A program made the translations under genes and the position numbers. The notes beneath the pieces are model-generated. The model made no database searches. It worked only from the letters and a program-made list of their open reading frames with translations, and was not told the DNA's origin. From positions 62,001-126,000 of the forward strand of contig JAYWIR010000104.1 in assembly GCA_036172245.1 (NCBI GenBank): a DNA stretch of 64,000 nt, read 5' to 3'. Each line of letters begins with the position of its first letter. Positions within the stretch are counted from its first letter, which is position 1. Positions 3,800 through 32,000 of the stretch are shown in pieces. The stretch comes from Raillietiella orientalis. Lineage: Eukaryota.

Positions 3800-3997
3800 G
3801 GCCTCCTTTTGCTTGGGAGACGCGATCTTCCCGGCTCCCTCACCTAAAACTGCGGCGTTCACAGGCAGGCATTTCTGCCTGTCAACGGCCGTGAACCACA
3901 CAAAAAACAATAGCAAAAACTCCTATACACGGAGCGCACAACAAATACGTCCGACGCCAGCCGGTATCTATCACCAGGATATGCCAAGGCATTTATT
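3800..3997 (-). mobile_element. Decayed Tx1-like 3'-end motif followed by the 5' UTR/ORF1 start of the next copy
   Basis: The minus strand reads AATAAATGCCTTGGCATAT (3997-3979), a transition-decayed form of AATAAACGCCCCGGCGTGA. CGGACGTA follows at 3953-3946, then caggcagaaATGCCT (ATG 3872), paralleling caggcagcgATGCCT at 7175. Confidence 0.55.
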
Positions 3998-4069
3998 ATC
4001 CTAATTTTCTACAAAATTAGATAACAAAGTCTTTGAAAATAGTTTTTTATGGCGGACTTGTCGTGAGCC

Positions 4070-5596
4070 GGTGCTAAGACCGGCGAGGTCCTCTCCCTAG
4101 GCGCAGGGCCGCGGTATGGAACGCGTTTGCGGCTCTCATCCTCCACTCCCTGCTTTTTGTTTGCCCCGTCCCCCTCCTCTTGAAAAAGAAAACAAGGAAC
4201 CTCCTAAGCATCGTCCATTGGGGCAAGGGGAGGCCCCGAGTGCCTCTGATGGACTTATGCTCTCCGCGTTGGGACGGAGGTCTTGGTCTCTTGACGCTGG
4301 AGCGCATGGAAATTCAGCTGCGATGCCGCAGCATGGCTATCGCAGCGCAGTTGTGGAACACCCCTTGGTGCGTTACGGCCCGCCTTCTTGCCAGCCGTGT
4401 CTCCAGGACGCAAGGACTCCTGTCGTTTCTGCTGTGCTCCGGCCGGAAGATACGAAGCTGTGGCCTGCTCCTTGGTCGCATGGCCACCCTGGCAAAGGAG
4501 AACGGCTGGATGGTCTGCAGCTCCGCCAACTCCTCCGCATGGCTGTAGGAGACAGTTGGCACGTGGGAGAAGTTAAACCAGCAAAGAGGAGAATCATGGA
4601 ACCGCCTGAGTCCCGGCATCTACACCCGCTGCACGCTGCGGAAGATGATCGAGTGTCCCGCCAGAAGCACGTGGGCGGAGACGACCCCACTGACCACGGC
4701 GTTGCCCTACCTGAGGATGGCGCTTTATAACAGCCGGAAGCCGAGGTGGCAAGTCTTCTGCCGGATAGCGGGAAGGGAGAAGGAGTTAAGTGGATTGACC
4801 ATGAGGGAACTGGCTGACGCCGCGACCCCAAGCGTTCTGCCGCGAGGAATCCAGAGATGGGGCGAGCTGCTTGGCATCCCGTTGGATGACCTAAAGTGGC
4901 CCCCGTTATTCAGAGAACTATCCACCCTCCCCCTTAAGTGGCAGGAAACGACGCTGCTGTTGTTGCATTGGGGTCTTTTCTGCAACACGCTCCACCACCA
5001 CTGGACGTTGGGGAACGTGGGACAGAACTATGCAGTGTGTGGGGAGAAGGAATCCGTCCCCCACCTGTTAGTGGACTGTGCTGCCCTCCGGCAATTGTGG
5101 GAACGTTTTGCTACGACCCTCCGAATGCCGGTCAGAAGTACCCACAGAGACGTTGTGAGACTCTTCGTGCGAGACGCCCTGCCACCAGCCTCAACCCTGG
5201 CAGCGCTATGCTGCCTCCGAGGGATTGTGACTGCGCGGAGAGCAGCCAGCAGAGAAAGCAGCGATAGGGACCCCATCGTACACGCGGGTCACTACCTGCC
5301 AATCGCGATCGGCTGGTCCCATCTGGGAGATATGACGAGGGACCTCGAGGGCATCCTGGAAAGGATGGTCTCATCCTCCAGCGGGCTGTGATCCCTTCCC
5401 GACCCTCCAAATAGTTTCTTTTTGTGTGTGTGTTCCATTTATTATTCTTTTTGTTTTACCCCCTATCCCCCTCCGCTGCAGAGGAGAGTCAAGCCGGTCT
5501 AACAACCGGCTTCCTGGCTGGTCCCATGAACTATTGGCCGTAGCGAAGCCTGGTACCGTGGATGTACAGTATCTATTAATAAACGCCCCGACGTGA
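4070..5596 (+). mobile_element. Tx1/L1-clade non-LTR retrotransposon, 5'-truncated ORF2 C-terminal half + 3' UTR
   Basis: Post-RT motif L(C)SPRWDGGLGLLTLE, LHWG and a degenerate zf-RVT (YAVCGEKESVPHLLVDC). Stop at 5391, then a T-rich UTR and terminal AATAAACGCCCCGACGTGA at 5578-5596. Confidence 0.88.
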
Positions 5597-5708
5597 GAAC
5601 TCCCCAACGTCTAGTGATGCCTGCATGCGTTGCAGGGGAGACTCCAGCCAGCAGACTCGACTGCTGCCATTTCTGGGGAAGGGTAGTCGTGTATCGTAGC
5701 ACTGGGGG

Positions 5709-7085
5709 CTACTCGAGTTTTTCTTTTGGAATGCGCAGTAGCTCGCCCCAGCGTTGGAGTCTTTGAGGCAGGACACTTGGTGTCGTGGCATCCGCCATCT
5801 GACCCATGGTCCAGCCGCTCATTATTCTTTCTTTGACTTCAATCCTGCAGGTGACCTGCCACCTCGGCGTTATGCTGCTGTTCAGTTCCCTTCCCAGAAA
5901 AAGCAACGCCATTGCGACGGGAGACGCTTCAGCCCACGCGGTCCTCGCAGGACACTCCAGCACCTTCTGGAGCGAGTAGTGGGAATAAGGGCAGTGCCGC
6001 AGGCAGTTCCAGTTTTGATTTGCAGGTTGATGCATCCTTGCCCACGTGCCAACAGTTTCATCTAGCCAAGTGCTAGAGATCACGGGGCTGCAAATCATCC
6101 ATGCGTTCTCCTTGGCCAGAATGGCCATGCGCCCTAGGAGGAGGCCGCATTTCCTTCTCTTCCTGCCGCGGCAATGAAGATGGGACGCGAGCCCATCCGT
6201 TCCGGATAAAAGTCGAGCAAGGAGGCGGGTGGGCACTCACCAAAGGGTGCTCCAGAACTTGACTGCTATGGCCAGGGCTCGCCATCGCAGCTGTGTCTCT
6301 ATGCACTGCAGCGTCAAAAATTCGAGACCTCAATTGCGACGCGGGGCGCACAAGTCGTTTAAAGGGACTCGGGTCTTCCTCTTTCCCCACAGGGCAATTC
6401 GAAGGAGGTCGTTGATCCTTTTCTTGATATAAGCGTCGACGGGGCAAACAAAAAGTAAAGGACGCAGAATGGGGCCCGCGAAAGCGGTCCAAACAGCAAG
6501 CGAAACTTGCCTTCCGGCAACAGGCCGATCGCCAACTCCACTTTTTGGAGGCGATCTGACCAGAATTTGGATAAACCAAACTCCCTCAACGGAACACCAA
6601 GGTATCTCAAGTACCTTTCCGTAGAGATCCCCAGAAGGATCCAGTCAGATCGTCCAGCTCACGTCGCACCAACTGGCAAAACCGACGACTTGGTCCACCT
6701 AGAGTCCTGTTTCACGGCTCAACAGCTCGAAACAATATTCTGGAGCTGTGACCTAAGCGGACATAGGTAACAGGAGCAGGAGATCATCGGCGTAAGCCGA
6801 CACGGCAGGCGTACCGGGGCACGAGCTCGGCAGGGTAGCCAAAGTAACCCTGTAGGCTCTCAGCACCAATTCAAAGTAGGTGCTAAAGAGCAGGAAACTG
6901 AGGCTATCTCCCTGCCTGATTTTGCGCCGCACCGTTTCGCAGTACACGTGTTGTCCCCCCAAAAAATGTTCGTTATCGCAGCACCCCAGCAGGAGGGCAG
7001 GTAAACCGTTAAGGAGGGGGGAATCCCATGCACTCCAGGAACTCCAGAAGTTCCCGGTCCAAGCAGTCGAAAGCTTTACGCGCGT
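5709..7085 (-). mobile_element. Tx1/L1-clade ORF2 internal fragment (RT core to post-RT), degraded
   Basis: The minus strand gives KAFDC, IRQGDSLS.LLFS, AYADDLLLLL and RYLGV, plus CGLLLGRMAILAKENAWMICS, which closely matches the 4070-5596 copy. Confidence 0.9.
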
Positions 7086-7087
7086 TA

Positions 7088-10000
7088 AGACGGACGTGCT
7101 TCCTCGGTGCTCTTCGTGCCAGGAACCGTCCCTAGGTGCGAGCTTCGTGTGCTTCGGTGGTCGATCAGGCAGCGATGCCTGACAAGACCACCAGTGAGTG
7201 TCAGGGGGCGGCGGCAACGTCGCCTCCTGAGAAGATGGTGTGTCAGGGGGCGGCGACAACGTCGCCTCCTGAGAGAATGGAGTGCCAAGGGGCGGCAGAA
7301 ACGTCGCCCCCAGTGGCGATGGAGGTGGAGGCATCCGCCCCCAAAGAATGGTCCCCACTGCAGCGCGGGCGTGGAGCGCCGTCGTAGCGGCGCCATCGCC
7401 TGCAGCCGCGGCGGAATTGTCTGCCTATGTGGAGGAGGGGTATAACCCCTCACTGTTCTACAAGGTAGGCAGTCCATATTGTTCTGAGAGCGCACGCCAA
7501 TTCTCTAAAGGGATGCGCGCTCTCAATGTACAGAAGGAGGAGCTCTGCGCTATGAGCATCCGTAGCGGGGGGCAGTACGTTGAGGTGATCTGCAAACAGG
7601 CAGATCTGGCCCAGCGTGTGCTCAAAACCCCCGTGGTGATGGGGACACGCAGGCTCCTTCCCATTACGGTGGACCGCAGTATGGTAGTCAATCTGTTAAG
7701 AGTTACGGCGCGGATGCGGAAAGTACTTGCCGCGTTGGGAGAACACGGGACGGTCATGCAATGTGGACCAAGCCTAGCCCTTTTGAGGACTATACTAGGC
7801 TGCAATGAGGCTTCACGGCTGCACGTGTAACCGTCCGCGAGGGCTCTTCCCTACAAACTGGTGGTCGACGGCGAAACTGTCGACCTCTGGTATGTAAGGA
7901 AGCCCAAATACTGTGGATTCTGCAACACGTCGGGCCACCTCAAAAGGAGGTGCCCCAACGTACAGTGCCAAGTATGCGGTACAATAAGCCACACGATGAA
8001 GATGTGCCCGCAAGCCGCTGTGCGCGTGGCTTTCGCGAGGAACCTAGAAAAACGAACCCGGCTACTACAAAAAAGGCTTAAAAAAGGCAAATTCTCCCGA
8101 TGTCCGGACGTCCGGTACCATGCGGAGTACAAGGCCAAGGTTGAGCGCCAGGTCTGGCAGTCAGGAGCGGCTTGTCTGCTCGACGACCAGGGCCTGGAGT
8201 ACTCGGGCGCTACCGATGTTCGCCGCCTCCTAAAGCGCTACTACTCCTCGTTGTATGCTAGGGAGCCGACGGAACTTAGTCTCTCGGAGCTCCTCTTGCC
8301 AGCGGATGCCCCTGCGGTCGACGAGGAGGAACGCGCCACTCTAGACTGGCCCTTCACGGCGGAAGAAGTGTCTTCCGCCATTGCGGACCACAAGAAGCGT
8401 AAGGCGCCAGGTGAGGATGGTCTGCCTGCGGAATTCTTCCAGTGCTTCGCGGCGGAACTCATCCCCCTGGTGCTGAGGCTTTCTACGCTGATGTGAGACA
8501 CGGGCAATGTACCGGCCTCGTTTCGCTCAGCAAGGGTGCGTCTCTTGCCGAAAGGCTAAGAGATGCGCCAATTAAGCAACTGGCGTCCGATCACCTTGGT
8601 GAATGCGGACGTGAAGTCGTTCTCCAGGCTCTGGGTCGCGGGCTCAGTCAGAATCGCTGGATCCGTGGTAAGTCCGGAGCAGTCTTACGCTGTTCCCGGG
8701 CGGTCCATGGAGGCGAACCTGTTCTTCGCGCGCACGTGGCTCGAGCTGCAACGCTGCATGGCGCATGACAGCCAGGTAACCGCATCTGCGGCTGCCGCTG
8801 CTAGACGTCGCTGCTTTCGGCCTGAGGAAGCGCCGGGTGCCTTGGCGGTCGCGGTCGATCTCTGCAAGGCGTTCGACTGCGTAAATTAGGATCTCCTCCT
8901 GGAGCTCCTGGAACGCCTCAGTCTCCCGGTGCACCTCGTGGCCTATTTGCGCGCTTGCTGGCGCCACGCTCTCATTTCTATCTCTTTTAGCGGCTGCCAC
9001 GTGTACGGCTTGCCGGTGCGGCGGGGCATCAGACAGGGCGACAGCTTAAGCCCGTTGCTCTTCAGCATCTTCTTTGAGTTGGTGCTGAGGGCGTACAGGC
9101 TGACGCTGGTCAACCTGCCGAGCTCTTGTCCAGCAACTCCGTCCGTGGCGGCCTATGCTGACGACCTGCTTCTCCTTTTACCCATGACCAGCCCGGCGTC
9201 CAGTCTCGAAGATTTCTTCGAGCTGATTCGCCGGGAAGCGGGCATGAGCGTAAACCGGAGCCAGAGCGTGGTCGTTCCTATTGGTGCGAGGTGGGAGGGA
9301 CAGTCCGACTGGATCCGCCTGAAGATCCCGACCGCTTCGTCCTTCCAATACTTGGGCGTTCTGCTGGAGAACATCAGCCCAGTGGAAGTGTGGTCGGACT
9401 GCCTTCGGGAGGCTACGAGTGCTCTGAGCCCTTTCCACCTTGGCAGGTTTCTCCTGGAGGAGCGGGCCACAGCGTGGAACACGTTCGTTTCCCCCCCTCT
9501 TGCGCCCCCTGCTTTTTGTTTGTCCGCCTCCCTACTAGGCCAAGCTCCAGACGCACAGCCTGTTGAAAAACACACTGTGGGGACCTGCGAGGTTTAGGAT
9601 CCTCCTGAAAGACTTGGCGGCTCCGCGTCGGGATGCCAGCTTAGGCATCCTGACGCTGGAGAGAATCGAGCTGCAGGTGCAGCTTCGAATGTTGGCCCTG
9701 TGCGCCAACTTTTGGTCCACTCCGTGGTGCCCTCTTGCGCGCCTGCTCCTGCAGCGCTGCACCGGCAGCGATGGACTTCTGTCGCTTCGGCGGCATACCG
9801 AGCGCGCCACGAGAAGCTTCGGTTTCCCCTTGAAACCGCTTTACCGGCTCCTGGCAGCCCAGGAATGGATCTCCCGCCGTCCAACGAACTTTCAAGCCTG
9901 GCGGCAGGAACCGTTGCATGCTTAGGCAAAGCAACAGGATGTTTCGCTTCTGGAACTCCGTTGCGCTCACCTCTCCCCGTACTGCACGGTGGATGAGGTG

Positions 10001-10580
10001 TGCAACAGCCAGGAGAAGTGGACTCGCCTGGCCGTCACGCCCCTTGCCGACGCGCTGTCAGCCCTCTGGGCAAGAGATGACAGCTGTGAACCGGCAAGGT
10101 GGGAGGTCGCCCGCACCATCGCAGGAGCAACACGACCCATAGGCGGCTGGAGGACTAGCGAGCTGGCAGACACCGCCACGCCTCGCAACATCGCGAAGGG
10201 ACTCCGTCGGTGGAGTGAACTTTTGAGTGTGCCCCCGAAGAACTTGTGGTCCCTTCCTCCTGCTTAAACACTTCTGTGTTCCCCCTTTCTTAGAAGCAGG
10301 ACGTCTTCATGCTGGTGCATTGGGGTTTTCACTCCAACCAGCGGACGAACCTTGTTCCCGGGGGAGTTATCTCCCCGAACTGTAAGCGGTGCGGGGAAAT
10401 GGAAACGCTCCCGCACCTGCTCCCGGACTGCGGTGTCCTCCTAGGACTTTGGCGGAGGCTGGCCTCAGCTCTCCTGCACCAGGGGGACACCGGGAGGGAC
10501 TTGATGCGCCGCTTCTTCACGCCAGGCGGCCTGTCTTTAGGTGCTGTCGTTGCAACGGTCTGTTGCAACGACAGCACCTA
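7088..10580 (+). mobile_element. Near full-length Tx1-like element: 5' UTR, Gag-like ORF1 (RRM-like + 2 CCHC knuckles) joined in frame to RT and zf-RVT; no APE endonuclease; several stops and frameshifts
   Basis: CGGACGTG at 7091-7098 and ATG at 7175. Knuckles CGFCNTSGHLKRRC and CQVCGTISHTMKMC. Then YYSSLY, KAPGEDGLPAEFF, NWRPITLVNADVK, QSYAVPGR (Tx1-type), DLCKAFD, GIRQGDSLSPLLF, YADD, QYLGV and CKRCGEMETLPHLLPDC. ORFs 7282, 7861, 8563 and 8929 share one frame. Confidence 0.92.
7196..7312 (+). repeat. 42-bp coding tandem repeat (~2.8 copies) in the ORF1 N-terminus
   Basis: ECQGAAATSPPEKM / VCQGAATTSPPERM / ECQGAAETSPP. Confidence 0.9.
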
Positions 10581-10797
10581 AAGACAGGCAAAACTCCTCG
10601 CTGGAGGCGAGGGAAGAGCAGTAGAGGCTCCATTCACCTCGGAGTAGGGTCCTGCAGGGCAGAGGGATTCCTCGACATCCATTTTCACAGGCGTCGGCTT
10701 CATTTTCTAATGAAAATTACACCACACCCGAAAAAGTCACCAACCGCAAGAAGAGCACTAGAACCGGAGAGCAAGAATGCACGTCCGAACAATGGAA
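10580..10797 (-). mobile_element. 5' end (UTR + ORF1 start) of a Tx1-like copy
   Basis: Minus-strand CGGACGTG at 10787-10780 and ATG at 10703, the same 83-nt spacing as 7092->7175. It translates MKPTPVKMDVEES...PARSFA, like MEVEAS/KMEVSVEE and ARAWSAVV/SYADVA in other ORF1 copies. Confidence 0.7.
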
Positions 10798-10799
10798 GG

Positions 10800-12117
10800 G
10801 GGTCGGCTGCCTTCTTCTTCGGCGTTGCATCAGCAGCGAAGGACTGCTTTCGTTCCCGGCGCATTTTCGGCACACCAGAAAAGGATTTGGTTTTCAGCTG
10901 AGGCAAGCTGCCCGCTGCTGAAAGCCCAACGTAGAATCTCCTGCAGCCCTATGCATGGCGGCAGGAGTCTGTTGAGTCATGATCTGCTAATGTAAGAATA
11001 TTTCCGGAAGATCTTCGAGGCCTGCGACTTCTTCTGAGTCACTCTCTGGAAGAGGTCATGCAGGATCATAAGGGGAATCCCCTAGCCGCCATCACCCTTG
11101 CTGCACCGCTTTCTGCCCTTAGGACAAGCAAGGACAGTTGCCTACCGGCAGGGTGGGAGTTCTTCTCCACCATCGCAGGAGGGACCGAGCTCCTTGGTGC
11201 CTAAAAGACAAAGGAGCTTGTGCACGCCGCCACTCTTCCTAATCGAGCTAAGGGACTTCTCCGGTGGAGCGAGCTTTCCAATGTGCCTCCTCGAGGAACG
11301 AGTAGTCCCTCCCGCTTGTTTAGACAGCTCGGTGTTCCTTAGAGGATAGAAACAGTACGTGCTGCTATTTTTGCACTGGAGATTCTAGTGTAGTCAGCGC
11401 CGAAGCCTCGTTTCCGGGGGAGCTGTCTCCCCAAACTAGTCGAGATGCGGGGCCTTCATATCGTTCCCGCACCTTTGACTCTTCCTTTGCAAAGTGAAAC
11501 GGAGGCTCACTATGGCTGTCCCGCTCCACGGAGAAACTGCGAAGGACCTGCTGCGCCGTATCGTCATGAGCAAGAGGCTTTCATGCGGCGCAGTAGTCGC
11601 AACAGTCCGTTGCATTCGCGTAATTCTTACTGCCGACCACGGAATGGAGATGGCATCGCTGCGAAGGGAGGTCCACCGTTTGGCAGCTGCCTACATGAGG
11701 ACGGCTGCAAGGTGGCCACACCCGGAAGAGAAAAGCAGGAGATAGCCGTCATCCACCGCCGGTTAATGGACAGTAAAGAACGGCGGACCACGGTGAACCT
11801 TGCCCTCTCCAACCCTTATTTTATTTTATTTTATTTATGTGTTTGTTTATTTATTTATTTTGTTTCTTTTTCCATCTCCGTCCGCACCGCAGCTTCTCCA
11901 GTGTTTTGATCCTTATCCCAGTGCCTCCCGGAGCGAACCCAAAGACCCCTGCTCAAACCCACCGCATTTAACTTTCTTTTTGTTGCCCTCGATCTCCCGC
12001 CCCGTTCCGAACTTCCGTTATCCAGGCCTGTGCCGGTGGACTTCCCCCTTTGCTTGTTTGGTCTCGATTGAAAACCAAGTTCTCTACTGGTTGATTTTAA
12101 GAAACGCCCCGGCGTGA
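10800..12117 (+). mobile_element. Tx1-like 5'-truncated ORF2 C-terminal fragment + 3' UTR
   Basis: AWRQESVES, KQYVLLFLHW, VSGGAVSPN*SRCG...FPHL and GAVVATVRCIR are homologous to the 38030-39566 copy. T-rich UTR; terminal AAGAAACGCCCCGGCGTGA at 12099-12117. Confidence 0.85.
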
Positions 12118-13400
12118 AGAGGTGAGAAATCTCGGTAGCCTCCAGTGCGGACGTGTTTTTCGGTCGCTCCGCGCCTGCAATTCCGAGCATCCTTTTGCCA
12201 GCGCTTCCGCTGGCGCTTGGGAGTTCCCGTGTGTGGTATCCATGCAGTTCTCTGCTCGAACCATGGATAGGATTAAATGGAATTCGAAGTTATCGCATCC
12301 GCTGCATCTGTGCAGCAACTGACTGCCAGTCGTCCCCGGGATAAGTTGCCTCGCCAGCAGTGATGTCATACGCTGACGTTGCTGCCGCCGCGTCGTCCCC
12401 AAGATCAGCTCCCAGCGATGCAAGGTTACAGGCTTTTGTCGCTCAAGGCTACAGGCCTGCACTTTGCCATAAGGTGAATGGGACACTCACTGGGACAACG
12501 GGACGAAAGCTGAACGTTGAGCTAGTCCGGGTAGGCGTGAGGGAGCAGGACCTTCTCGCCATCGTGCGCGCTGGTGGCATGGAATACGTGAAGGTACGCA
12601 GCACTTGTGCAGCACGTGCTCCGTACCCCGCTGTCCATCGGTGGGAAGGAGGAATGGCTCGCTCGTTGTCCAGCTCTTCGACATCGAGCCGGAGATTGGC
12701 AACCGCGAGGTCCTCAACGCGTTGGCGAAATTCGCCACGGTTTATGCAGTGTGGAGAGAGGGCAAATCCTTTAAAGGATTTGCCCTCTGTCCACATTGGA
12801 CTCGCCACTTCACGGAATACGGCGCCGAATTGTCGGTCACTGCCTGCGCAGCTGCAGGTGCACGGCACGGTCATTCACCTGTGGCTCGCAGGAAAGCCTT
12901 GCGTGTGCGGGCAGTGCGGCAAGGAGGCGCATCGACCGAAGAAATGACCCTCCCCGAAATGCCGCTACTGCAAGGAGGCCGGACAAGATCTCAAAAAGTG
13001 AGCGGAACTTGCAAAGAAAAAACAAAAAAGGAGGCAAGGAGACTTTGCCGAAAAAAAGAAAAGAAAGGCACGCGGCAGGAGTTCCGCAAAAAAGCAAAAC
13101 GGAACGCGTGCAAACCGCGGGCACCCACGCTCGCAAAGTCCAGCGCAGACGATCTCGCTGCAGGGCAGCCGCAAAACAAAGGGCGTGGGAGCTGGGCGCG
13201 TGCCGCCACTGCGCCCGCCACCGAACGCGGAAACAACATGCCGCGGATGGGCTCAGCGGAGTCCGAAAAACAGAGGGCACAGCGGAAGTGCAAGAAGGGG
13301 ATCGCAATAAGGCCAAAACCACTTCTACTCCGCCGGCCCATCCTGTGGCTTCCCAGCCAAACAAAAAGGAATGAGACTTCCGGTGCGGCACCAAAAGATG
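12118..13400 (+). mobile_element. Tx1-like 5' UTR + degraded ORF1 (Gag-like), head-to-tail after the previous copy
   Basis: CGGACGTGTTTTT at 12148-12160. SYADVAAA, FVAQGYRPAL and AGGMEYVKV match YVEEGYNPSL/SGGQYVEV at ~7.4-7.6 kb. Also EVLNALAKFATV, knuckle remnants CGQCGKEAH and CRYCKEAG, and a basic tail. Confidence 0.82.
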
Positions 13401-13889
13401 GAAAATGAGGCGGCGCTGCGAGAGCGATTGCGCCACAGGCGGCCAGATGTCTGCCGAAGCAGCAGTTTTCCCCATTCCCACCAGCGGTGGGGTGAATTTA
13501 TTGAACAGCTTGGGATCACAAAATTCATATCATTGGACAGTACGACAGTCCGATGCTCACTTTCACTTTCATAAGCGTTTTTCAATGTCACTCATTGTCA
13601 CTTGCGTGTCACGTTCAAATGTACTCTGCAGGAATGGGGTCACTCAGTTTTAGTGGGGATACCTGCGCAGCTCCTGATCCTAATTTCCTTTTTTAATAAG
13701 CCTTGCAGGATATCCAATGCCTGAGTATTGTTCATTCGGGTCCGCATTTTTGCCCTTCTTATCACGATGCTCCTGATGAATAGGGCATTGTTTGTTTGTT
13801 TTTTTGGTACGCTAAGTACCTCAAGAGCCGGTCTCGTGCCTCGCGGCGCATGTGGCTCTTGAACACTGTTTCACGCCATCCGCGGAGGG

Positions 13890-14450
13890 TGCGTGTTCTC
13901 CAAGATTGGGGGGCACCCCGGAAGGGTCCGCCCTATGAATCCAGGAAGACTCGGAGTCCGTTCCTCTCACGCTTGGGGAGGAGGGATCGCACCTCCCACC
14001 CTGGTTGTCTCCTTCTCATTCTCTCCAGAAGGACCCCCCGGAAAGGGGATGGTCCTCTCCATTTCATATTCTCCGAAGGGAACCCGGAAAGGATTCGCTA
14101 GTAGGAATTTCTTCTCAGGAGGGAGCCCGCAAGGGAACGGCTCCTGTTCACTCCTCTGAAGAGAACCCCGAAGGGACGCTTCCGAAACTCAGAAGGGGCG
14201 CTGCAGCTTCACGCAGGGAATCGCTCTCGCTTGCTTCCTTGCACTCTGTGAAGAGGCGACGACTCGGAGGGTCTCCCCGAAACAGGGGGGTCCGCTCCTC
14301 TGAACAACTGGAGAGGTACCTGTGAAGGCTCCTGCTCCATCTTGAAACCGGAGGGGTCCCTCCGGTGTGGGTGGTCCGCTCTCCGTTGTACGACTGGAGG
14401 GGAAACTCCCTACTCCTTTATTCCTGGGAGGACCCGAAGGTCGAATTTCA
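13890..14450 (+). repeat. Unclassified module of degenerate ~40-50 bp units rich in CCC-NNAA-GGG mini-hairpins; homologous to 30050-30360 (-)
   Basis: Shares collinear words with the reverse complement of 30050-30350: ttctccgaaggga, gctagta..aatttct, tctgaagagaaccccg, cagaag..gcgctgc. Confidence 0.75.
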
Positions 14451-14462
14451 TTGTTCTGGCCT

Positions 14463-17420
14463 TCATCGGGGGGCTCCGGCTGAAACGACCACCGGTGCCA
14501 CACCCGAATGTCTCGGCCAACCAGAGCCATTGCATCGAGGAACGTTACAGTTTTCTTCAAACAACCCCGCCGGCACCTCCATCTTCTTCATCGTTTGCAA
14601 GCTTGTCACCTGCTTCAGCTTGTCCCGGTAGCCGCGCAGCGTCGGGCACGTCAGTATATGGAGTTGGGCTTCCCTGTCTCCGCAGGCCCTGCACATGTCA
14701 TCCCGAACGTTGCCTGCCCAGTGCTTCGTCGTCGTGCCGCTCAGGATGCCTCCGTGATAAAACATCAGGAGGTCATCGTGAGTGTCGATTGGTAAGTCGC
14801 TCGTCCAGACCGTGGTTCCAACCGCCAGCAGGTTCACCTGGCGGCATCCATAACGGCTGGCGGCCGCGCTGGGAGCGTCGTGCTCGTCCAGGTTCTTGGT
14901 TACCGCTTCTTGGATGTTTGCTCTGGTGATCAGCCGCCAGCAGTTGGATTCCTGATTTTTCCAGGTATCCTGTCCCACTATCTTCGTAATGAGGAGAAAG
15001 GGTCGCATCTCCTGGAGGTAGACGCTTCTGGTCAACTGCTCGCAGTCCCCGATGTTCACCCTTGGTCTCTGCAATATCCACTTGCTGGTGTCCCGAGAAA
15101 TGCACAGGAAGTATGGGACGAACAGGGCCAGTTGGACTACCCAGATTTCCTTACTTGGCACAATTTCAAGTTGGTGCTTGTTCAGCAGTGCCTGCTTTCT
15201 CTTCCAAGTCGCGTTGATGTCTTCCCACTTTCCGTGTTTGCCTATAAGGACAGACAACAGGGTTCACGAGTTGTTTGGCAAATGCAGGAACAACTCGGGA
15301 GGCCAGAGAAGGCTCTGTGCGCCGCATAAGGTCACTGATTCCATTTGACGGCGAGATCCAGGATTTGTCGCACGTCCAGAAGATTCACGGATGGCTATAG
15401 CGACTTCATCCCTGCCCTGCCTTTCTCTCGCGGTCGGCACAAGAGTTTTAGCCTGATCCGCGGCTTGCAACGTTTCCAAAGTACTTACCGCTGTAGCTGT
15501 TCAGTTTCCTTACTCTTCCGTTCGTCCAATAGGCAGAAGGCCGCTCCAAAGAGCACCTTGGGAAGGACTCCTCTTTGCAGTTTAACCTTCTGCTTCAGGC
15601 AGGAGTCGAGCAGGGCGTATTCCGCATCCTCTTCTCTCGATGTGCTAAGGCCTTCTTTCCATATCTGTTGCGAAGCCGAGGCGTTGCGGATGTGGATTCC
15701 CAGGCACTTGATCTCGTACACGACTCGGAATCCTTCCTTCGTTAAGGCGGCGGAGAAATCCAGTATTCCGATGGGCAATAGCTGGGATGATTACTAAGCG
15801 TCCATCCGCAAGCCCGAGCCTCTTTCCAGGGACACGACGACACCGAGGAACTCATGCTGATCCCTCTCGTCTTTCAGGAAAAAGAGTACATCGTCCGCAT
15901 ACCTTAGGTGCGTCAGTCTGTATCGTCGTGAAGGCGTATTCCTTGGTCTTCCTTAGGCGGTTGGCGTTGATCTTGGCCAACCATTTGGTGTCCGTGTTCA
16001 AGATAAAGATGAGCCGCTATTGAGTGACCTTATCCAAACCTCCTCTCATTGATAGCAGCCTCATCCTGCTCCCGTGGAACGACTCAGGGGGCCTTCGTTC
16101 TTCTTGGATGCAAAGCGTTAGCTCGTGAAACAACCGCAGGTACGTGTGCTCGTAATGCTGCGAATAAGAGATGAGCACGCGATCAGGGACTGCAGCCACA
16201 TTCTTGCGGATTTCGCTGCATGCCTACTTCACTTCTTCCATGCAGATTTCCTCTTCTAGACCTTCCTGCTGTTGCCTGCTGAGTCGATCCAGCAAGCATC
16301 GCAAAAGAACATCCTGCTCGCTTCTTGGGAGTTTTCCACGTGAAAAGTGGGAGGTGTCATGTCGGTGGAACGCCTCCACTATTTCTTCCGACGTCTGACG
16401 CAGCTGGCCCTGCTGCTTGGTGCAGAAGATATCCATCACCAGATTCTTCTTCTCCTGCACGCCGACTTCCCCTTTAACGTTGCTTGAGAGGTACCGCCTC
16501 ACGCACTGATCCCAGCAGTTGGAGAGGGAATGATGTTGGATGCTGTACTCTTGGTAAGCTTCCTGCCACATCGTCCTGTTTCCAAATTCCGCGTTTCAAA
16601 ATACGTGGATGGTGTGCTCCAATCTGTCCCGTCCTCGACCCTTGTGGTGTCCCGCAGGATTGATTCTATCATTTCCTGGTGACAGGAAAGCGTTTCGAGC
16701 CAGGCAGACACGCAGATGAATGCTGTCATGGTGCTTGTCTGTTTCCGGGGTTCTCCCTTTTCAGTGTGAACCGCAGCAAGGGGCGGGCCGAGAGCAGTGT
16801 CTGCATGTTTAGGAATCTCTGCACGCTGTTGCCTGCACGATGCCTTGACTGTAGAGCACGTGGTGGATGGACTAGTGGCTGATCGTCAAGACGTAGCAGT
16901 TCGAACTCTTCAGAAAACTGCCGATGCCCCAAGTTTACCCCGATATTTCTGGACTTGATCGTGATGCCCAGGGTATTCAGGTCGCCCACGACGACGACGG
17001 TGTCCATAGGTGCGGCCCAGCTGCGCAGGAGATCTCGCACAGCTTCAGCACACCGGTGCTGAAGCTGTGCGCTAGGGGTCCGTTCACGATTACCAGGAAT
17101 AGGTGAACTGCTCCAGAACATGGACATATCCGAACATGGACCATACCACGGGACCAAGAAGAAAAGGATTCCACGACGATGTGCGTGATTATGTTCTTGA
17201 CGAGGATGTGAACGCCCTTCATCTGCCTGTCCTCTGGGCTCAAGAACAGCATGGAGTCGCGACGGCGCATCCAGATTTGTTCCCACTCAGATTTCTGCTG
17301 ATGAATCCAGGATTTTCTCCGAGAAACCCACCGCACTTCCTGTGCCTCCCTGACAAACGTTCCCGCCGAACGAGACCCGAGCCTAGCAACTCCCCTCGCT
17401 CCAGCAGCCGCATGCAAAAT
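14463..17420 (-). mobile_element. Second, divergent L1/Tx1-clade family: degraded ORF2 with APE endonuclease, partial RT and zf-RVT
   Basis: APE-like KGVHILVKN, LVIVNGP and VVVVGDLN. RT-like *RLIFILNTDTKWLAKINANRL and IKCLGIHI. C-terminal CRACGDREAQLHILTC. The central RT appears deleted. Confidence 0.78.
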
Positions 17421-18684: not shown

Positions 18685-21196
18685 TCAAAAATCCTCCCAA
18701 GGGATCACTTTTGAAAAATACACATCAAGTCCTTGTCTGTGTGATTTAGCACATCGACAATACATTGATAAAATCAGAAATGCCAAGTAGAATTTCATAA
18801 ATGAGATAACTTCCTTAAAATACCCGAAATTACGAAGCAAGCCTGATGTTTTGGACATACTTGAATTGATTGCCACATTCTCAATAGTACCATCAAGCCT
18901 ACCAGCATAAGTAGGCTGATAAGCATCTACTAAAATTCTTAAATCTTCGTTGCTTAGATAGCAAAGTACCTTTTCAGCACAGTCATGAGATAACACAGGG
19001 AAGATGTGCCGATTTTTGTAGAGTTGCTCTAGCAATTTCCTCCTTTTTGCACCCTTCCTGAAACCGTTATTTATCATACTGGCGTAAATTCGGAATTTCA
19101 TTTCACAATCATAGGATCTTAAGAGTTGGAGTATATCTTCACTTCCCAAGAGGATTGGTTTACATTTTTTGTCAAGATGTCATAAAATGAGGCGTTAGAA
19201 TTACCAAGCTTCTCACTCTTCAGGCACTTCATTTCTTCCTTACATAAACTCTCAAAATGGCTTATTTCAGGTTTAGAGTCACGATGCAGTAATTGCAAAT
19301 TTCTTTCATGTACATACAAATTTGCAGTTTTCATCTCAACTATGTGGCACTTAAGAATTCGAACAATTTCATACCACGCATAAGAATTACGATAAAACCA
19401 ATGGTTATCTGGGTCATAATTGGGGTAAATGTTCTGAAGTGGCTTGTCATTCCAAACAAAATCAAGTGCTGTGTAATTATTTTTACAGGTGATCTTAATA
19501 TCAGAGCCATGATCTAGAAGAAGGGCAACGATCTTGTCATGTCCTTGTTTAGAAGCCATGTGAAGTGCTGTCCTACCACTTTCATCTTTCAAATCAATTA
19601 TGGCACCAAATTCCAAGAGAACCTCAACAACTGCTAGCTGACCATTTCGAGCAGCTTCATGAAGGGGTGTCGTACCCTCATTAGTTTTAGCATTTATATT
19701 AGCTCCTCTATTCAAAAGCAATTTGGCAATTGCTTCCTTTGGGTGAAAGTATGCAGCACAATTTTCATCAAGAAATTTCCTGCCTGCAGCAGTAAAATGC
19801 AATGCCGTTTTGCCATGTTCATCAATAGCATTAACATAAGCACCATGATGTAAAAGTGCTTTCACAATTTCTCTCCATCCCTCCTGAGCAGCAATATACA
19901 GTAGTTCAAGGTTATCTTTTACATTAGTCTTCTTAGTTAGAAGTAGCTTGGTAATTTCCACATCCGCATTTTGAACAGCTAAAAATACAGGCGTTAAACC
20001 ATCTTTGCTTTTAGCATTTACATCAGCTCCATAGCTAATCAACAGTTTGGCAAGCTCCTCCTGTTTATTATGAGCTGCAACATGTAAAGGCGTATAACCC
20101 CATTTTGAGTTGTTTGGCATGTTAGCATCAGTACCGTACCTTAAGAGTTGTTCAACAATTTTCGAATATCCTTTCTTAACTGCAGCATGCAGAAATTCAC
20201 AATTATTTACATCTTCTGGATGAACAGTAAAACCATACTGAAGCAGAGTTTCAAGAATCTGGCCATACTCTTTCCGACAGCCACAGACTGCAATCTTGAG
20301 AGCACTCCTATTACTTCTGTTATTCAAATCAGGACAATGCTTTAAAACATGCTTAATAATTGATAAAAGTGTGCTTTCCACAGCAAAACACAGGGCAGTT
20401 TTCCCATCCTTATCCTGAGCATCAATGTTAGCTCTGCTCTCTAAAAGTAACTTGACCAGTTCTTCATGTCCTCTTTGAACAGCAAAGTGTAGTGCAGTTT
20501 TACCATCTGTATCTTGAGCATCAACGTTAGCTCTGCTCTCTAAAAGTAGCTTAACCACTTCCTCATGTGCTGCTACAACAGCAAGGTGCACTGGGTTTCG
20601 AAAGAAACGAGTACACATAGAATTTACGATAGCTCCATGTTTCAAAAGACACTCAACACTCTGTAAATGCCCTTTTTTTTTTGCTGCCATATGAAGAGAA
20701 GTTCTACCATCCCTTTGTTGGGCATTGACATCAGCACCTCTACTTAAAAGGAATTCCATAACTCCCATGCAATCATCCTTTTCTTTATTACCGAAGTATG
20801 AATAAGTTATACTGTGGCTGCTACTAGGACAAGAAGCCCCTCCTTGATACAACCCTGTAACCCATTGCCATAACACACCCACAACTGCACTGGGAAGTGG
20901 AGTTCCACCATACTGATTTCTAGCATCAATCAAAGCACCTCTATTCTCGGCAATCTCTGTCACCATTCCTGGAACCCAGCTCTAGCATCTACCCAGTTAA
21001 CTTTGCAATGACTTGTTAAAAGTAGTTCAGCAACCTCTGTATGTTTGTGCTGCACAGCATCACAAAGTAAAACATATCCTTGTGACCATACTCGCGAGTA
21101 GGACAAACCATAAGAATGAATTAAGCTCCTCACTCTTTCTGTTCTTCCTTCTCGAACAGCACAAATCAGCTCCCGGATGATATCCTTCTTCCTCAT
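18685..21196 (-). pseudogene. Ankyrin-repeat + PRANC/F-box-like gene, frameshifted (ORFs 21196-20960, 20966-19119, 19149-18685)
   Basis: About 14 ankyrin repeats (GYTPLHVAA, GKTALHFA, GTTPLHEAA, GRTALHMAS). The C-terminus HIFPVLSHDCAEKVLCYLSNEDLRIL is paralogous to 1-840. A 7-bp deletion near 19152 relative to copy 1 shifts the frame. Confidence 0.88.
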
Positions 21197-23111: not shown

Positions 23112-24402
23112 AATATTGACAATGTGGCAATCACTACAAGTATGTCCAATACATCAATCATGCTGAGGTTCATAGAGTAGCAAGGCAAGTTATAGGTAAT
23201 GATTGCTTCATAATTTCATGTTATTTCAAGGAAGTCATTTCATTTCTAAAACTGTACTTGGCATTTCTGATTTTTTCAATAGATTATTTGTTGTTTATTT
23301 CAAAAAGGGGTAAATGGTAATCTACTGTTCCATTGTCGTAGAGGAATTTGAACATTGGAAAAAAATGAACGTTAGGACGAAGCACCATGCATAACGGACG
23401 TATAATTGGGTGTTGCGCAGCTGTGGTACATTCCGACATTTTTTTTCCCTTTGAACTAAGCATTCTGTACGTTTTGGGCAGTCCTATTTCCATTTTGCTT
23501 TAGGAGAAATCGTAAGCAGTAACACCATTGAGTGTTGTGAGTCGCATTCTGGGCTTCGGTGCATCGTAACCGACACGGTTTTCGAAATTCCTTATGACAT
23601 TGGCACCGAGGTGTTTCTCCCTCGCATTACCATCCACCCATACACTCTGTCGTCATCCAAACGTTGCTAGCAGTTTTTGCCGCACCATATGTTATCAAGC
23701 TGGGTATACAGATAGTCCTGAATGCCCATAGATGTTGGATGTCTCACCTGAGCTCAGCAGACGAAGAGGTGACCAAAAGTGATTTGACGAGTTACCGCAA
23801 TTGCATACTGCAGAAGAGAAGCTCACGGAAATCCATGCCCCAAAACGCGAAGGATAGTTCGCCGTGGATGTGATACCGAAATGTGCAGTGTATAATTGAT
23901 TGCCCTATATTCAGTTCTTTACAAAGACAAAAACATTCATGGATGTCCATGCGGACGCTCACGAGGACTCGGAAACGGAGACTCGTGATTTTAATGCTAC
24001 AGCCCAAAGACTTGCTGAGGCTATGCGGGTAGCACATTCTCGTATGCATGTGTGATTGGGTGTTCAAGTGAATGTGAAGTAACTTGTTTTGGAAATGCGG
24101 AAAGGCTGCCGACGGTCGGATTCTGGAAATCTGTCCCGACGTCTTCTTCACCAATTCCAATGTCTTCTGATGCATTTTCTTGATTCCGAGGAGCACATTC
24201 TTGTGTCACAGATTGCCAGTTGATCCACACTTGTAAATTTGGGATGAAATTCTTGCAGGTGGGTCGGATCAAAGAATGGAGGCGTTTTGGTTTCTGAGTG
24301 GCATGAAGAACACACAGGACTTACGCCATATTGAAGAGGCGGAGGACACGAAAACCTGTCCAGAACAAGTTGATGTTTCCATCCAGTTGGTTAGTAAGCA
24401 AG
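23112..24402 (+). repeat. Duplicated block B1 beginning with a remnant of the ANK-PRANC 3' end (NIDNVAITTSMSNTS)
   Basis: Collinear with 784-2076. The first ~170 bp also match the 3' end and flank of the minus-strand ANK copy (cttggcatttctgatttt). Confidence 0.92.
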
Positions 24403-24433
24403 CGTACCACTCAGATTATGAGAATCGATGGAA

Positions 24434-27600: not shown

Positions 27601-29092
27601 CACTTCGCGCGAACACCTGGAGACTCCGTTTTCCTCACGTGGATTCCAGATCACAACACTGTAGTGGATGGCGACTTTCGCCACGTGCACTCGGCGCTCT
27701 GGACGTGAGGAACACTCCAGAAGAACGTGGTCAGGTCGTAGATGGCATCACCCGTCTTGACAGGTCTTCAATGAACTCTAGCCGTGTTGATGCATTACTA
27801 TTCGTCAGCATCATCATCTTCCTCATATGTTATTGCTCCTTTTCACGGGATTGCTCGTTTTTCCCTTTTTTGCCTTTATATTCGTGTCGTACGTATGACG
27901 CATACCGTTGTGTGAGGAGCAAAAAATACATGATCACATACATGTGGAGATTTTTTTCCCCTCTGTGTATAGCCATACCTAATAATCGCGTGCCGTCCCT
28001 ATGACGTCACAGCTGTGCTGATAGGCTTTACAGCGCGGAAGGGAAAGCTCTTCTATCGCCATCCGCGCAAATGAATCTTTCGAAGTCGCTGGAGAAGATT
28101 CTCATTCTGAAGAGAAGGAAAAGCCGAAACCCGTGGTTTCGTGCTGCTGCTGCGTACCCGTGTCGCTCCTGAGGGGTGCACTACGCACTGTACGGGCTCA
28201 GAAGGCGCACGCGCTTTCCCTCTTTCGCGAGTCCCCGCTTCCAGGTCTCTCCAGAGAAAAAGCGAGATTTTTTCTCTCCTCCTCGGTCAAGTGCGGAACG
28301 CGACGTACACGTACCATCCTCGCGCACGATTCGGAAGCTCCGTCGCTTCGAATTTCCGCGCTGCAAAGAACGCGGTAGCTGGATGATTGTTCTTCCTTTT
28401 TTCTGGAGACGAGGCCTGTCCGTCTACAAGCACGCCGCACTGCGCAGGCTCCTGGACACGATTGGGATCGATCTCCATGGAGAGGGCCTTCCTTTCGCGA
28501 GTGGCATGTGGGTCCTGCGAAATTGTCCGATCGTCGGGCCCCAAACCAATTGTGCGGGAACCATCCGACCCCCAAATCTGAGCCGAGTGTGAAGTGAGGA
28601 GCCACTCTTGAAAGTCTCGGACGCGACTTCTTACCGCCATGCCACCGGGTGACTCGTAATCTCGACGCGTTGAACGTCTTTTCTCTCCCACTCCCTCCCG
28701 ATCCTCCACCCTTCTTCCCACCTTTAGCTTTTTCTTGTTTTCCCGATCCGCGAAAAAAGGTTATGGTGCCACCCTCCTTCAGCCACCACCTCGCGTCCGG
28801 CTTCGGCGACTGGCTCGCAACTGGAGAGACGACCGACTGCTCTTTGTTACGGTCCCCACCCCACTAGACCCCCACCCCCGCCCCCGATATGCACCTCGTT
28901 GGAAGTGACAAGAACAGGAAGCTGCTGCTATACCTCATCTTCGGAGCGATCTACCTGATCGGGCTGCTAGTCACTGTCGAGAGACTCGCGTCGCAGAACG
29001 CGAGCTGAAGTCGGCTTCGGAGAGGCCTGAGGTCCCTGCGCCTGATCCAGTCGGGAGCGCGCTTCGGTGCAGGATTGGTAAACACCCTGTCC

Positions 29093-30040
29093 TCACGCCG
29101 GATAGTTTATTTATGATAAAATTCAGATACACGTCTATGACGGGACATTGGGTTCTGCAACGTAACGTGTAACCACGAGGGGGAACCGGCCGGAAGCTGA
29201 TGCGCAGGTCGGCGGGCTTCGCCTCGGCAGCACAGGGGAAGGGGAGACAAACCAAAGGAAGAATAAAACAGAAAGCATACAGTGAGAAAAATGAAGAAGG
29301 GATTCGGAAAGCGATCACTGTGTTCTGGAGGGTGTCCTCTGCATCCTCGTACGGATGCCTGCAAGTTCCTGTTTCGGGACTCCCAGGAGCGATCAGTTTG
29401 ACGCTGTCCTCATCCAGAGTGCAGTTGAATAGATGGCGTCCCTGTTGTCCTGGCCACCTCAGGCGTTGCTCTGTGATCCCGCGTAGGCAGCAAAGTGCTT
29501 CTGGGGATGCGGCCGGTGTGAGAGCGGCGGTCAGGAAGAGGCCCTCTACAGCGTCTCTAGCGTTGCCGCCGGGAGATCCTTGGGTGAAGCGAAGCGCCTC
29601 CAAAGGGGCCGCAGGGCAACTCTTCCTATAGGAGCTGGGGAAAGGATTCCCTCTCCTCGCACCTTTTACAGTGTGGGTCCACACACAACTGTGTCCGATG
29701 ATGTCGGCGGGCGTTGCCCGGGAGACCTAAGTGCAGCAGCAGCCGCGCCGAATGATGACACTTTAGTGCGGGAATTCATGAGCGCCGGGGGCCACTACAG
29801 GTCTACCTCCGGAATACCTAGTAGCACGCCCCGGTGCAAGAGTCCGAGGTCCTTTCGAGCGACCGCGGACCCAGCGTTTGTGAGCAGTTCCGTTATCCAT
29901 TCGCCCCGCCCTTTCCTTGTTCCGGTGGTTTGCACAGTAACTTAGCTAGACGTGAGGCTGCTGTCTATATTCTTCCTAACAGAGAGCGGCTTGCGACGAG
30001 AAAGGCTCTGCTAGTCAAAGCATTCTTCGCGAGGTCATCT
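29093..30040 (-). mobile_element. Tx1-like ORF2 C-terminal fragment + 3' UTR
   Basis: The minus strand gives GVLLGIPEVDL*WPP, LLLHLGL, HCKRCERRESFPQLL and ALCCLRGI. Terminal AATAAACTATCCGGCGTGA at 29111-29093. Confidence 0.82.
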
Positions 30041-30049
30041 AGGTTCTCT

Positions 30050-30360
30050 CTGAATTAGGATTCGCCACTTCTCCAGAGAGTCCAGAGAAGTGACTGGATC
30101 CCTTCCGGGAAGCAGCGCTCTTCTGGATAAGTGCATAAGCGCTCAAGCGGGGTTCTCTTCAGATAAGGAGGAAACGGGACCAGTTCCTTTGTGGGTCTGC
30201 TACGGAGGAGAAATTTACTAGCTGATCTTCCCCCGTTTCCCTTCGGAGAAGACAAAAGGGGTGCGGACCCCTCGGAGGTCCCTCCAGAGAGAATTAGGGA
30301 GTGGATTCCCTTGAGGGTTCATTTCAGAGTCAACCAGGGAGGAGGCGATTTCCATTCCCC
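30050..30360 (-). repeat. Second copy of the unclassified hairpin-rich module, directly upstream of the Tx1-like 3' fragment
   Basis: The reverse complement aligns by eye with ~13990-14260. Confidence 0.72.
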
Positions 30361-30659
30361 GGTTATCCCCGTTAAAGTGTGACAGGTACGGACAAAGAAC
30401 CTTCACCGGATTCATCTGGCGGACACCCTTTATGAATGTTGAATGTTAATGTGTAAGGACTCCGTGGTGTAAAACTTTATCGTGCAAAGGAAGCTACGAC
30501 CCGTGTCAACTTGCAAACTCGGAGGAGGTCAATGTTTTTCATTTCGGAGGAATTTTCGAGTAATAGAACTAGAGAAGTCTTCCAGCATCTTGGAAATTGA
30601 CACTAAACCAACTCAATGATGATCTGTAAAATGTGCAGGTAAAAAAAAAAGAAAAAAAG

Positions 30660-31050
30660 ATGCACAGCGTAGGAAGAGCTCCGCAGGCAGGCCGTCTTCC
30701 TTGGGCGCTCAGCGCCTCTTGGGCTTCCCTATCGCGGTGATGATCTCACCGGCCGAGAATGGCTCGTCCAGGCTTCTCCTACGCTCCTCACGATCTTCGA
30801 AGCACCATTCGGGAGAGAAATACCGCTCGGAAGGTGTTCTCGCGTACAGAGTGGAGAAGAACTTGCGTAGCATAACTTTTACCTGCGCGAGAACCGAGTG
30901 TACTCGGCCCTCGTCTCGCAGCAAGCTAGCAGAGTGCCTGTCTTGCTTCTCGGTTCCTGCTTTGTACTCCGCCAGTTCTCGGATGTCGGATGCTTCGCTG
31001 TGACCGCGGGTCCGCAGGTGCGTTCTCTCGTTACGGACACCTTCTCCATA
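30660..31050 (-). mobile_element. Tx1-like ORF2 linker/RT-0 fragment
   Basis: SDIRELAEYKAGTEKQ...FFSTLYAR...LDEPFSAGEIITAIGKPKRR*APKEDGLPAELF, homologous to 8100-8445. Confidence 0.85.
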
Positions 31051-32000
31051 CCTGGCGTCGAGTGTATGTGTTTTTGTCGCTCTCCGTCGGCGATCGTCGG
31101 GTGACTCCCTTTCGTGCGTGTTTTGCTGTGGTGCATCGTCGGAGTTTTATCGCAGCCATGCCTGAGGATACCAAGATGGAGGTAAGCGTGGAAGAGGCAG
31201 GTTTCTCTCCCCAACCTACGGAGTTGAGGCAATTGCTCGCACGGAAACATCCGCGCCAACGACAAGGACTTGCATCGTCGAGACAGCTGAACCCACTGCA
31301 GCAGCCATACCAGAACAGAATGCGCAAAAGGTCAGTGGCTATAAGTCTTCCTCAATATGTAAGATAAGTTGCCTTCCGGGGGTAACACTGCACGTTCCTG
31401 ATCGAAGGTGCTTCAGAGGCTCAAGATTCGTGAGGAAGAGCTTGAAGATTCTTCCATCGTGAGCGGAGGGCAGAGCGTGGAGCTGACTTGCAAGGACGCA
31501 AGTCTAGCCCGGAGACGGCAAAATACCCCCCTTACTGTGGAAGGACGCAGGAGCTGTCCTGCGACGGAGGACCGCTCGTATGTGGATCACCGCACAGAAA
31601 TTACAGTCCTCACGCAGAAAACTGCAGTGCATGCGGAGCTGCATGAGAAATATTGCAGTGTACACGCGCTATGATCCAATCCCATTATATTTGAGTGTTG
31701 CGGAAAGCTTTTCAGTGGGATGGTCGCAGCGCGTGTCGAGTGCACGAGTCTGTGCAAGAGTGCACGAGAACGGTGGGTTTCCCCACAAACGTTAGATCCG
31801 CAACGATGTTTAGTGCACGGGGAAGTGCAATGACTGTGGTCGCTGTGATGTCGCGGGGCACCTGAAAAAGCGGTGCCCCAGTGTTTAGTGTTAATTGTGT
31901 TGTGAGAACTGGCATTCCGGAAGAGCATGCCTGGATGCGCCACTTCGTCTCCGCCTGCAGCGCAGAAAGCTCTCGGGAATTGTGCAGGAAAAGAAAAACT
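31050..32000 (+). mobile_element. Tx1-like 5' UTR + degraded ORF1
   Basis: Decayed DPE-like gtatgtgttttt at 31064 and ATG at 31158 (MPEDTKMEVSVEE). IREEELEDSSIVSGGQSVELTCKDASLARR matches VQKEELCAMSIRSGGQYVEVICKQADLAQR. Knuckle CGRCDVAGHLKKRC at ~31833-31877. Confidence 0.8.

Follow-up and report, generated by a model that had tools for sequence, protein, structure and literature searches.

Target-specific long interspersed nuclear elements (LINEs) are known in ribosomal DNA (rDNA), small nuclear RNA genes, microsatellites and other transposons. In the Tx1 clade, transposon targets include Tx1D for Tx1L, Mariner-N4_AMi for Tx1-Mar, long terminal repeat (LTR) elements for Tx1-8_Crp and Tx1-4_AMi, and Harbinger for Tx1-9_AMi (PMC4494074). 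The elements described here come from Raillietiella orientalis and were studied in the window, a stretch of 64,000 nucleotides (GCA_036172245.1, contig JAYWIR010000104.1, positions 62,001 to 126,000, forward strand), and across the 210 Mb genome. With a probability of roughly 85%, they form a monophyletic radiation of L1/Tx1-type LINEs in which several subfamilies each have a short target in conserved coding regions of their siblings, make a subfamily-specific nick there for insertion by target-primed reverse transcription, and start their RNA in the target. What sets them apart from known target-specific LINEs is a network of several subfamilies directed at the coding motifs of their siblings, and no description of such a sibling-targeting network was found in the literature searched, most subscription papers and Repbase being outside that search.

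The elements share with target-specific Tx1 LINEs an architecture of apurinic/apyrimidinic endonuclease (APE) and reverse transcriptase (RT), the use of another transposon as target, and tandems sandwiched by target-site duplications (TSDs), in that case with SINEU-3 (PMC4494074). The difference is that here the coding motifs of sibling LINEs are targeted, at a site particular to each subfamily and in a directed network. Zepp and ZeppL of green algae are likewise L1-type LINEs nested in LINE copies with tandem arrays of truncated copies; however, Zepp is described as targeting its own copies in one cluster per chromosome, whereas the present elements are dispersed and lie mostly in siblings, at fixed codons and mostly antisense (PMC8226300, PMC3446292). 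A further parallel is R1A of the melanogaster type, in which full-length copies lying off target bring with them 7-28 bp of upstream target sequence and for which an annealing leader has been proposed in 5' joining (PMC2718515). Off-target leaders occur here too, and subfamily Q, like R1A, shows a small target deletion instead of a TSD (PMC2718515). The R1 target is 28S rDNA, whereas here it is a sibling LINE, and the leader length fits a start in the target fixed by the downstream promoter element (DPE). Finally, the DPE-like motif of these elements, GGACGTGT, matches RGWCGTGY, the non-LTR DPE consensus of jockey, Doc, F, G and I; in those elements it normally lies inside the element from ~+28/+29 onward (PMC1636488, PMC4748587), whereas here it stands ~2-11 nt from the element end.

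The 7085 junction of the window is formed by the 5' end of subfamily M (subfamily letters are our own labels, L numbers denote loci, and codons follow the open reading frame 2, or ORF2, of L020). The M target is the RT KAFD motif at codons 577-579, entered antisense with a 14-bp TSD. In a first set, 24 of 30 M 5' ends lay antisense at these codons and the other six were tandems spaced by TCGAAAGCTTTACG; a second set was drawn from 84 pattern matches by coordinate, passing over three loci known to be on site, and of its 20 additional loci 17 were nested at the KAFD site and three were tandem. In total, all 50 M 5' ends stand at the site (41 nested, nine tandem). One full-length M copy carries the target 14-mer at both ends (L140/L253); among eight M copies examined at both ends, the 3' motif was reached in one, the others being interrupted or having their 3' end beyond the stretch examined. 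An exact degenerate pattern of the M target gave 38 matches, 27 of which were counted by hand as overlapping the 84 M 5' ends, but being fitted to one variant it undercounts and was not used as a test. At L084 (C1:11505301-11512301), an M 3' end lies in sense beside DLHKALDC codons and begins at a TCGA core like that of the M antisense target.

Repeated insertion could be mimicked by a few ancestral composite loci amplified by segmental duplication. Two regions of the window, 10808-13736 and 29556-32730, do have paralogs on contig C5 (3,464,000-3,488,000) at 94-98% identity, and a few M flanks are near-duplicates (L136/L138 and L147/L148 by script, L266/L269 and L272/L274 by eye). When flanks were grouped at 97% identity, however, 29 measurable M flanks fell into 27 groups and 27 Q flanks into 26; the M hosts differ from one another in sequence, and hosts best match different subfamilies. 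Amplification by duplication is thus exceedingly unlikely to lie behind the recurrence.

Targeted insertion into siblings is also seen among 3' ends taken without selection. An earlier note on the window had proposed comparing 3' junctions with a placement control; the first 92 3' ends of the list were taken, less two in L012, and two duplicates reduced the remaining 90 to 88. Counting as adjacent any family ORF that starts within 60 nt of the 3' end, 24/88 adjoined a family ORF as against 4/80 evenly spaced point-directions on the same contigs, a control that does not match local density (Fisher p=1.2e-4). Orientation was antisense in 21 of the 24 (p=2.8e-4), and for 12 of them another end lay on the same strand no more than three codons away (null mean 1.9, p~5e-5). 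Random nesting in regions dense in transposons, with the antisense bias due to selection or chromatin, might be offered instead. Family sequence does make up ~36% of window bases 1-45,300, so that the adjacency of all five 5' ends within the window is by itself weak evidence, and most unselected 3' ends are off-site. A shared codon position, however, is a test independent of density, so the adjacency is not explained by family density, nor can density bring all 50 M 5' ends to a single target or 12 of 24 ends to shared codons. Random nesting is accordingly very improbable as a general explanation and is refuted for M, A, B, Q and N, though the off-target fraction may still be so explained. The earlier note had envisaged a self-targeting family inserting at the start of existing copies; what stands of this is targeted nesting among related LINEs, the start itself being targeted only by Q.

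TSDs and empty sites, which had also been recommended as a check, help to order the insertions. For A, B, C, N and F, TSDs flank the element and the host ORF carries on beyond each of them, which makes the element with the 5' end the newcomer; the paralog L157 supplies an empty site. In ten of 28 cases the search gave only 6-7 nt matches or none, mostly for truncated or rearranged copies. Subfamily A targets endonuclease codon 75, antisense (TSD 12-13 bp), and eight of nine near-intact A copies were on target on at least one side. B enters the GDFN catalytic codons in sense with a 9-bp TSD, ATTTCAATC, found at the 5' side of 8/8 near-intact B copies. C lands antisense at codons 60-66 (TSD ~12 bp), N antisense at codons 494-499 (12-17 bp), F at codon ~1060 (~13 bp), P at codon 456 and D in sibling ORF1. 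One sequence type recurs for M in 50/50 flanks, for Q in 15/29, for A in 5/19 unselected ends and for K in 7/7, where the published threshold for a target-specific element is more than 20% of flanks, with a defined target alteration (PMC4494074). The best-matching hosts are mostly other subfamilies (A in N, Hb and H2; B in Hb; C in M-like copies; D in M-like ORF1; Q in D, A, B and C), with occasional self-hits such as the M host L137, 94% M, and the Q 5' end. A closed M-Q-D targeting cycle was considered and not shown, the commonest best-matching M host being a sister of Q, not Q.

Subfamily K targets a repeat that has a B-box-like motif and is attached to the tail of another LINE family (X); 7/7 K 3' ends share the start of the flank, six of them by BLAST match. 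This repeat can be seen at L069:5050-5600, L081:1800-1950 and L090:2280-2420. It is possibly a short interspersed nuclear element partnered with X, a suggestion that rests on the B-box-like motif seen by eye; ARAGORN found no tRNA gene in nine loci with the K target. X is a distant APE-RT LINE family with an internally repetitive 3' untranslated region (UTR), present in the window at 13800-17500(-) and 30100-30420(+), and several subfamilies of the clade have 3' ends in its tail (L077, L090, L114, L071).

Subfamily Q, at the 3952 junction, behaves differently at its ends. Among 29 Q 5' ends with flank, 15 lie at codon 366, nine are off target with a short target-like leader, and five directly follow a Q 3' end. 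On-target 3' flanks start ACnTCG at codon 364, antisense, with a 3-nt target truncation and no TSD; 4/10 Q-type unselected 3' ends, plus the chosen L206, are at codon 364. The direct Q-Q tandems are those of the window, L159, L176, L182 and L187, the window spacer being ~10 nt longer than the other four. Insertion at an existing 5' start holds for Q, because of these five ends and because its own 5' end, ACGGCGG, resembles the core of its ORF2 target, ACnTCGG. The broader proposal, of a single family whose insertions go to the 5' start of existing copies or close to it, could appeal to these spacerless Q tandems and to tandems in M (9/50), B and C. However, the spacers in M, B and C are target TSDs, the host ORF2 of head-to-head joins resumes beyond the element's other end, with a TSD, and the C-type ORF2 of L157 is intact where the window has an A 5' end. 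The 5' end at a head-to-head join is therefore that of a newcomer lying antisense in a fixed codon of an older sibling's ORF2, and not a sign of insertion at the older copy's start, as had been thought. The proposal is thus largely refuted except for Q, and is unlikely as a general account. A separate subfamily 'R' targeting the Q 5' end was also considered and rejected, since the 3' end in question belongs to Q itself, lying 5.56 kb downstream from the Q 5' end of L183.

Head-to-head joins could also result from foldback, inversion or twin-priming rearrangement, and foldback had been raised in the earlier note. This applies only near 10800, where a perfect 28-bp foldback (10529-10589) is found and an A 5' end stands without its body, joined with its leader GCCGACCCCC to C-type ORF2 at codon ~880. 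The ORF2 of L157 runs unbroken through codons 821-1047, and so the A end at 10800 arrived later. From these features 10800 is best classed as an off-target, rearranged junction; the idea it had given rise to, that A targets post-RT ORF2, was rejected in favour of the recurrent codon 75. At 7085 and 31050, by contrast, the two sides belong to different subfamilies and the same codon recurs in independent hosts. Rearrangement is refuted for 7085 and, while a plausible contributor at 10575-10800 only, is a highly doubtful source of the joins as a whole. As for the other two junctions, 12117/12149 is probably a C-type tandem made by re-insertion at a retained target, with the TSD-like spacer ATCTCGGTAGC, judging by its likeness to L027/L028. 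The 31050 junction falls at codons ~302-304, with support from L155 (302), L016 (302) and one tandem; the codon ~304 target suggested by it is a thinner case than 7085.

Several observations weigh against targeting of siblings as the general rule. No family ORF adjoins 64/88 of the unselected 3' ends; seven of these are K-type ends at the repeat joined to the X tail and a few lie in the X 3' UTR or in sibling UTRs, while many of the 64 flanks match none of the compared loci and agree with the subfamily target in no more than its first 4-6 nt. A was on target in only 5/19 unselected 3' ends (six by eye), the sites of P, D, C and codon ~303 are supported by 2-5 loci each, and the 12149 and 31064 subfamilies have only two and five matches, one of each a segmental duplicate (98% for 31064), the duplicate being the only match to the 12117/12149 tandem. 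Further, for the 5'-end samples the best 30 of 40 scored matches were taken, and ORF length served to choose the near-intact copies, so that both lean to young full-length copies. Given the 64/88 ends off family ORFs, the target specificity is real but leaky.

In the proposed mechanism, a subfamily-specific nick at the target would be followed by target-primed reverse transcription. The start of full-length RNA would lie within the target, ~27 nt before the DPE; the resulting target-derived leader could anneal while the 5' end is joined, as has been suggested for R1 of the melanogaster type. Re-insertion at a retained target produces head-to-tail tandems separated by the TSD, and many copies, mostly truncated, go off target at sites sharing just the first 4-6 nt. 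Antisense-biased landing at fixed sites in relatives' enzyme genes would then explain why the front ends of elements adjoin family members.

The geometry of the promoter bears on the start site. With the DPE-like motif so near the element end, +1 would fall in the target. In M, an initiator-like A at 7065 lies exactly 27 nt before GGACG, and the M initiator score peaks at that offset (4.0 of 6, the highest of 30 offsets; 49 loci). CA occurs at -1/+1 for +28 in 5/11 subfamily representatives (background 6.7%, p=4.5e-4), with two more at +27. When nine off-target Q copies were compared with the on-target flank, agreement upstream of GGACG fell from 96% at positions 9-22 to 58% at 23-27 and 31% at 28-58; the target-like leaders end 22-28 nt upstream of GGACG and then give way to background. 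A target-like leader of A was found off target at two loci, L107 and window 10800. The DPE position and the ends of these leaders suggest that transcription probably starts in the target site, though some leaders could be mimicked by deletions beside on-target copies.

The endonuclease may also be unusual. All five clade endonucleases aligned are without ~16 residues found in six outside relatives, a gap falling at L1 residues ~179-204, the stretch that contains the beta-B5/B6 hairpin implicated in target selection (PMC1950540). A predicted model (pLDDT, a confidence score, 85.7 overall and 66-82 over residues 161-210) keeps the fold of the L1 endonuclease (Z 24.5, rmsd, the root-mean-square deviation, 2.5, 208 aligned) and has a short helix in that region. 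In this model and alignment, the usual beta-B5/B6 specificity hairpin appears absent.

Combining the two, we tentatively propose, with the odds somewhat against the whole, that these LINEs carry only the downstream half of a core promoter (the DPE) and that the target in a sibling gene supplies the initiator. Full-length copies would be transcribed mainly on target, each transcript would bear a 15-20 nt target-derived leader, and the leader may help an endonuclease lacking the hairpin to choose its site; subfamilies would diverge by target switching, giving a network in which LINEs knock out one another's endonuclease and RT motifs. Against such a split promoter, B and Q have no CA at +28 and C has CG. 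Related subfamilies, each with a different 9-17 bp target in sibling enzyme motifs, offer a natural series on change in APE endonuclease specificity, which bears on site-specific gene insertion, the more so as the usual loop appears missing. The system further allows tests of parasitism among transposons and of a promoter that becomes complete only when the element has inserted correctly.

A first look at the RT region gave 5,929 candidates in the genome. Near-intact copies have an ORF1 with CCHC knuckles and an ORF2 of ~1,200 aa comprising APE endonuclease, RT and a C-terminal CCHC. Pfam found Exo_endo_phos and RVT_1 in 3/4 ORF2s scanned and RVT_1 alone in the fourth; zf-CCHC was found in 3/3 ORF1s scanned (E<=0.0025; two exceed the curated cut-off), and the ORF2 C-terminal C-x2-C..H..C is visible, zf-RVT being below the cut-off in 2/4 ORF2s. 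The closest solved structure for ORF2 in a PDB search is human L1 ORF2p (E 4.6e-45), while database relatives, nearly all unnamed, are ~26-32% identical at most. In a quick tree, built without a named Tx1 reference, 19 representatives form one clade (approximate likelihood ratio support, SH-aLRT, 100). The elements belong to the L1/Tx1 group of APE LINEs, for which 'Tx1-like' is a fair label that does not separate placement in L1 from placement in Tx1.

The shared 3' end has the form AATAAA..CCCGG-N5-CCGGGT plus 5 nt. Its motif, ATAAAYRYCCCGGCGNNNCCGGGT, has 1,176 exact matches in the genome and none for the reversed control, and copies are dispersed along contigs C1-C3, with 58 matches along C1. 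The five bases after the motif end in AA in 79/90 cases, with no long poly(A). Clustering of 3' UTRs divides the 90 3' ends among many subfamilies, between which ORF2 identity is ~50-75%. A 3' stem-loop is not claimed, because five sequences were no more stable than shuffles (z -0.03 to -1.46) and the search pattern itself fixed the arms.

Within the window, the five 5' motifs of the earlier note were all located: GGACG at 3952-3948(-), 7092(+), 10786-10782(-) and 12149(+), and a degenerate GTATGTG at 31064(+). The joins were as it had described, with 3' motifs preceding 3952 (3' end ~3969) and 12149 (3' end 12128) head to tail, and opposite-strand ORF2 pieces adjoining 7085, 10800 and 31050 head to head. 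A hidden Markov model (HMM) map placed these pieces at 5649-6962(-) (codons 621-1062), 10953+(+) (from codon 924) and 30664-31071(-) (codons 299-440), and BLAST lengthened the first to 7077 and the second to 10809. The single family assumed at the time has instead become five, each 5' end belonging to a different subfamily. The features are collected in Table 1.

Table 1. Elements, targets and junctions mapped in the window
Feature	Position	Strand	Basis or comparison
Subfamily Q 5' end (5' UTR, ORF1 start), DPE-like GGACG 3952-3948	3790..3962	-	82-86% to other Q 5' ends
Q 3' UTR fragment, degenerate 3' motif, head-to-tail before Q 5' end	3969..4110	-	aligns with L182 Q 3' UTR
5'-truncated G-type copy: ORF2 codons 779-1203, 3' UTR, shortened 3' motif	4102..5599	+	HMM; BLAST 83% to L084
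Older sibling ORF2 (codons ~577-1075) with antisense insertions, G at one end and M at the other	5600..7080	-	
M target/TSD TCGAAAGCTTTACG at 7067-7080, antisense of R-K-A-F-D codons, with initiator-like GC-A-GTC	7065..7080	+	
Subfamily M 5' end and ORF1 (CCHC region), GGACG at 7092	7081..8095	+	
A-type ORF2 codons 317-1150 joined to M ORF1, ending in foldback	8095..10556	+	91% to A over 2,400 nt; junction alignment
Perfect 28-bp inverted repeat with 5-nt loop (foldback)	10529..10589	.	
Subfamily A 5' ~210 nt with target-like leader GCCGACCCCC (10807-10798), joined off-target to C-type ORF2	10590..10807	-	
C-type ORF2 codon ~880 to 3' end; paralog L157 uninterrupted further upstream (empty site)	10808..12128	+	
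TSD-like spacer ATCTCGGTAGC separating a pair of C-type copies; the C target begins ATCTC	12129..12139	+	cf. L027, L028, L031, L032
Second C-type copy: 5' end and ORF1, GGACG at 12149	12140..13400	+	71% to C
5'-truncated K-type copy, 3' end at K target ACCARTGC..CACC-like sequence	29040..30048	-	
Older sibling ORF2 codons ~304-440, into which the 31064 element inserted	30664..31050	-	
Fifth subfamily: 5' end and ORF1, antisense at codon ~304	31051..32050	+	same codon at L155, L016
5'-truncated B-related copy, 3' flank without family ORF match (off-target example)	38070..39575	+	87% to L112

The 3' flank of the G-type copy at 4102..5599 is CTCCCCAAC, matching L067, which has a TSD. The join of A-type ORF2 to M ORF1 at 8095 is either a deletion or a truncated insertion, and the start of M ORF1 contains a 42-bp tandem repeat of 2.7 copies (7196-7308). 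An old, degraded clade-2 copy lies at 42010-44840(+), covering ORF2 codons ~243-1164 and having no recognisable 3' motif. It is followed at 45315-62436 by a tandem satellite with a 425-bp unit (~40 copies, 94% matches); an Rfam scan of the window, including the satellite, gave no match. Finally, ankyrin-repeat ORFs occur in diverged duplicates (74%) at 13-833 and 18839-21100(-), with a 620-aa frame holding several Ank domains, and beside them a 1.3-kb unit is repeated at 80% (784-2079 and 23112-24405).

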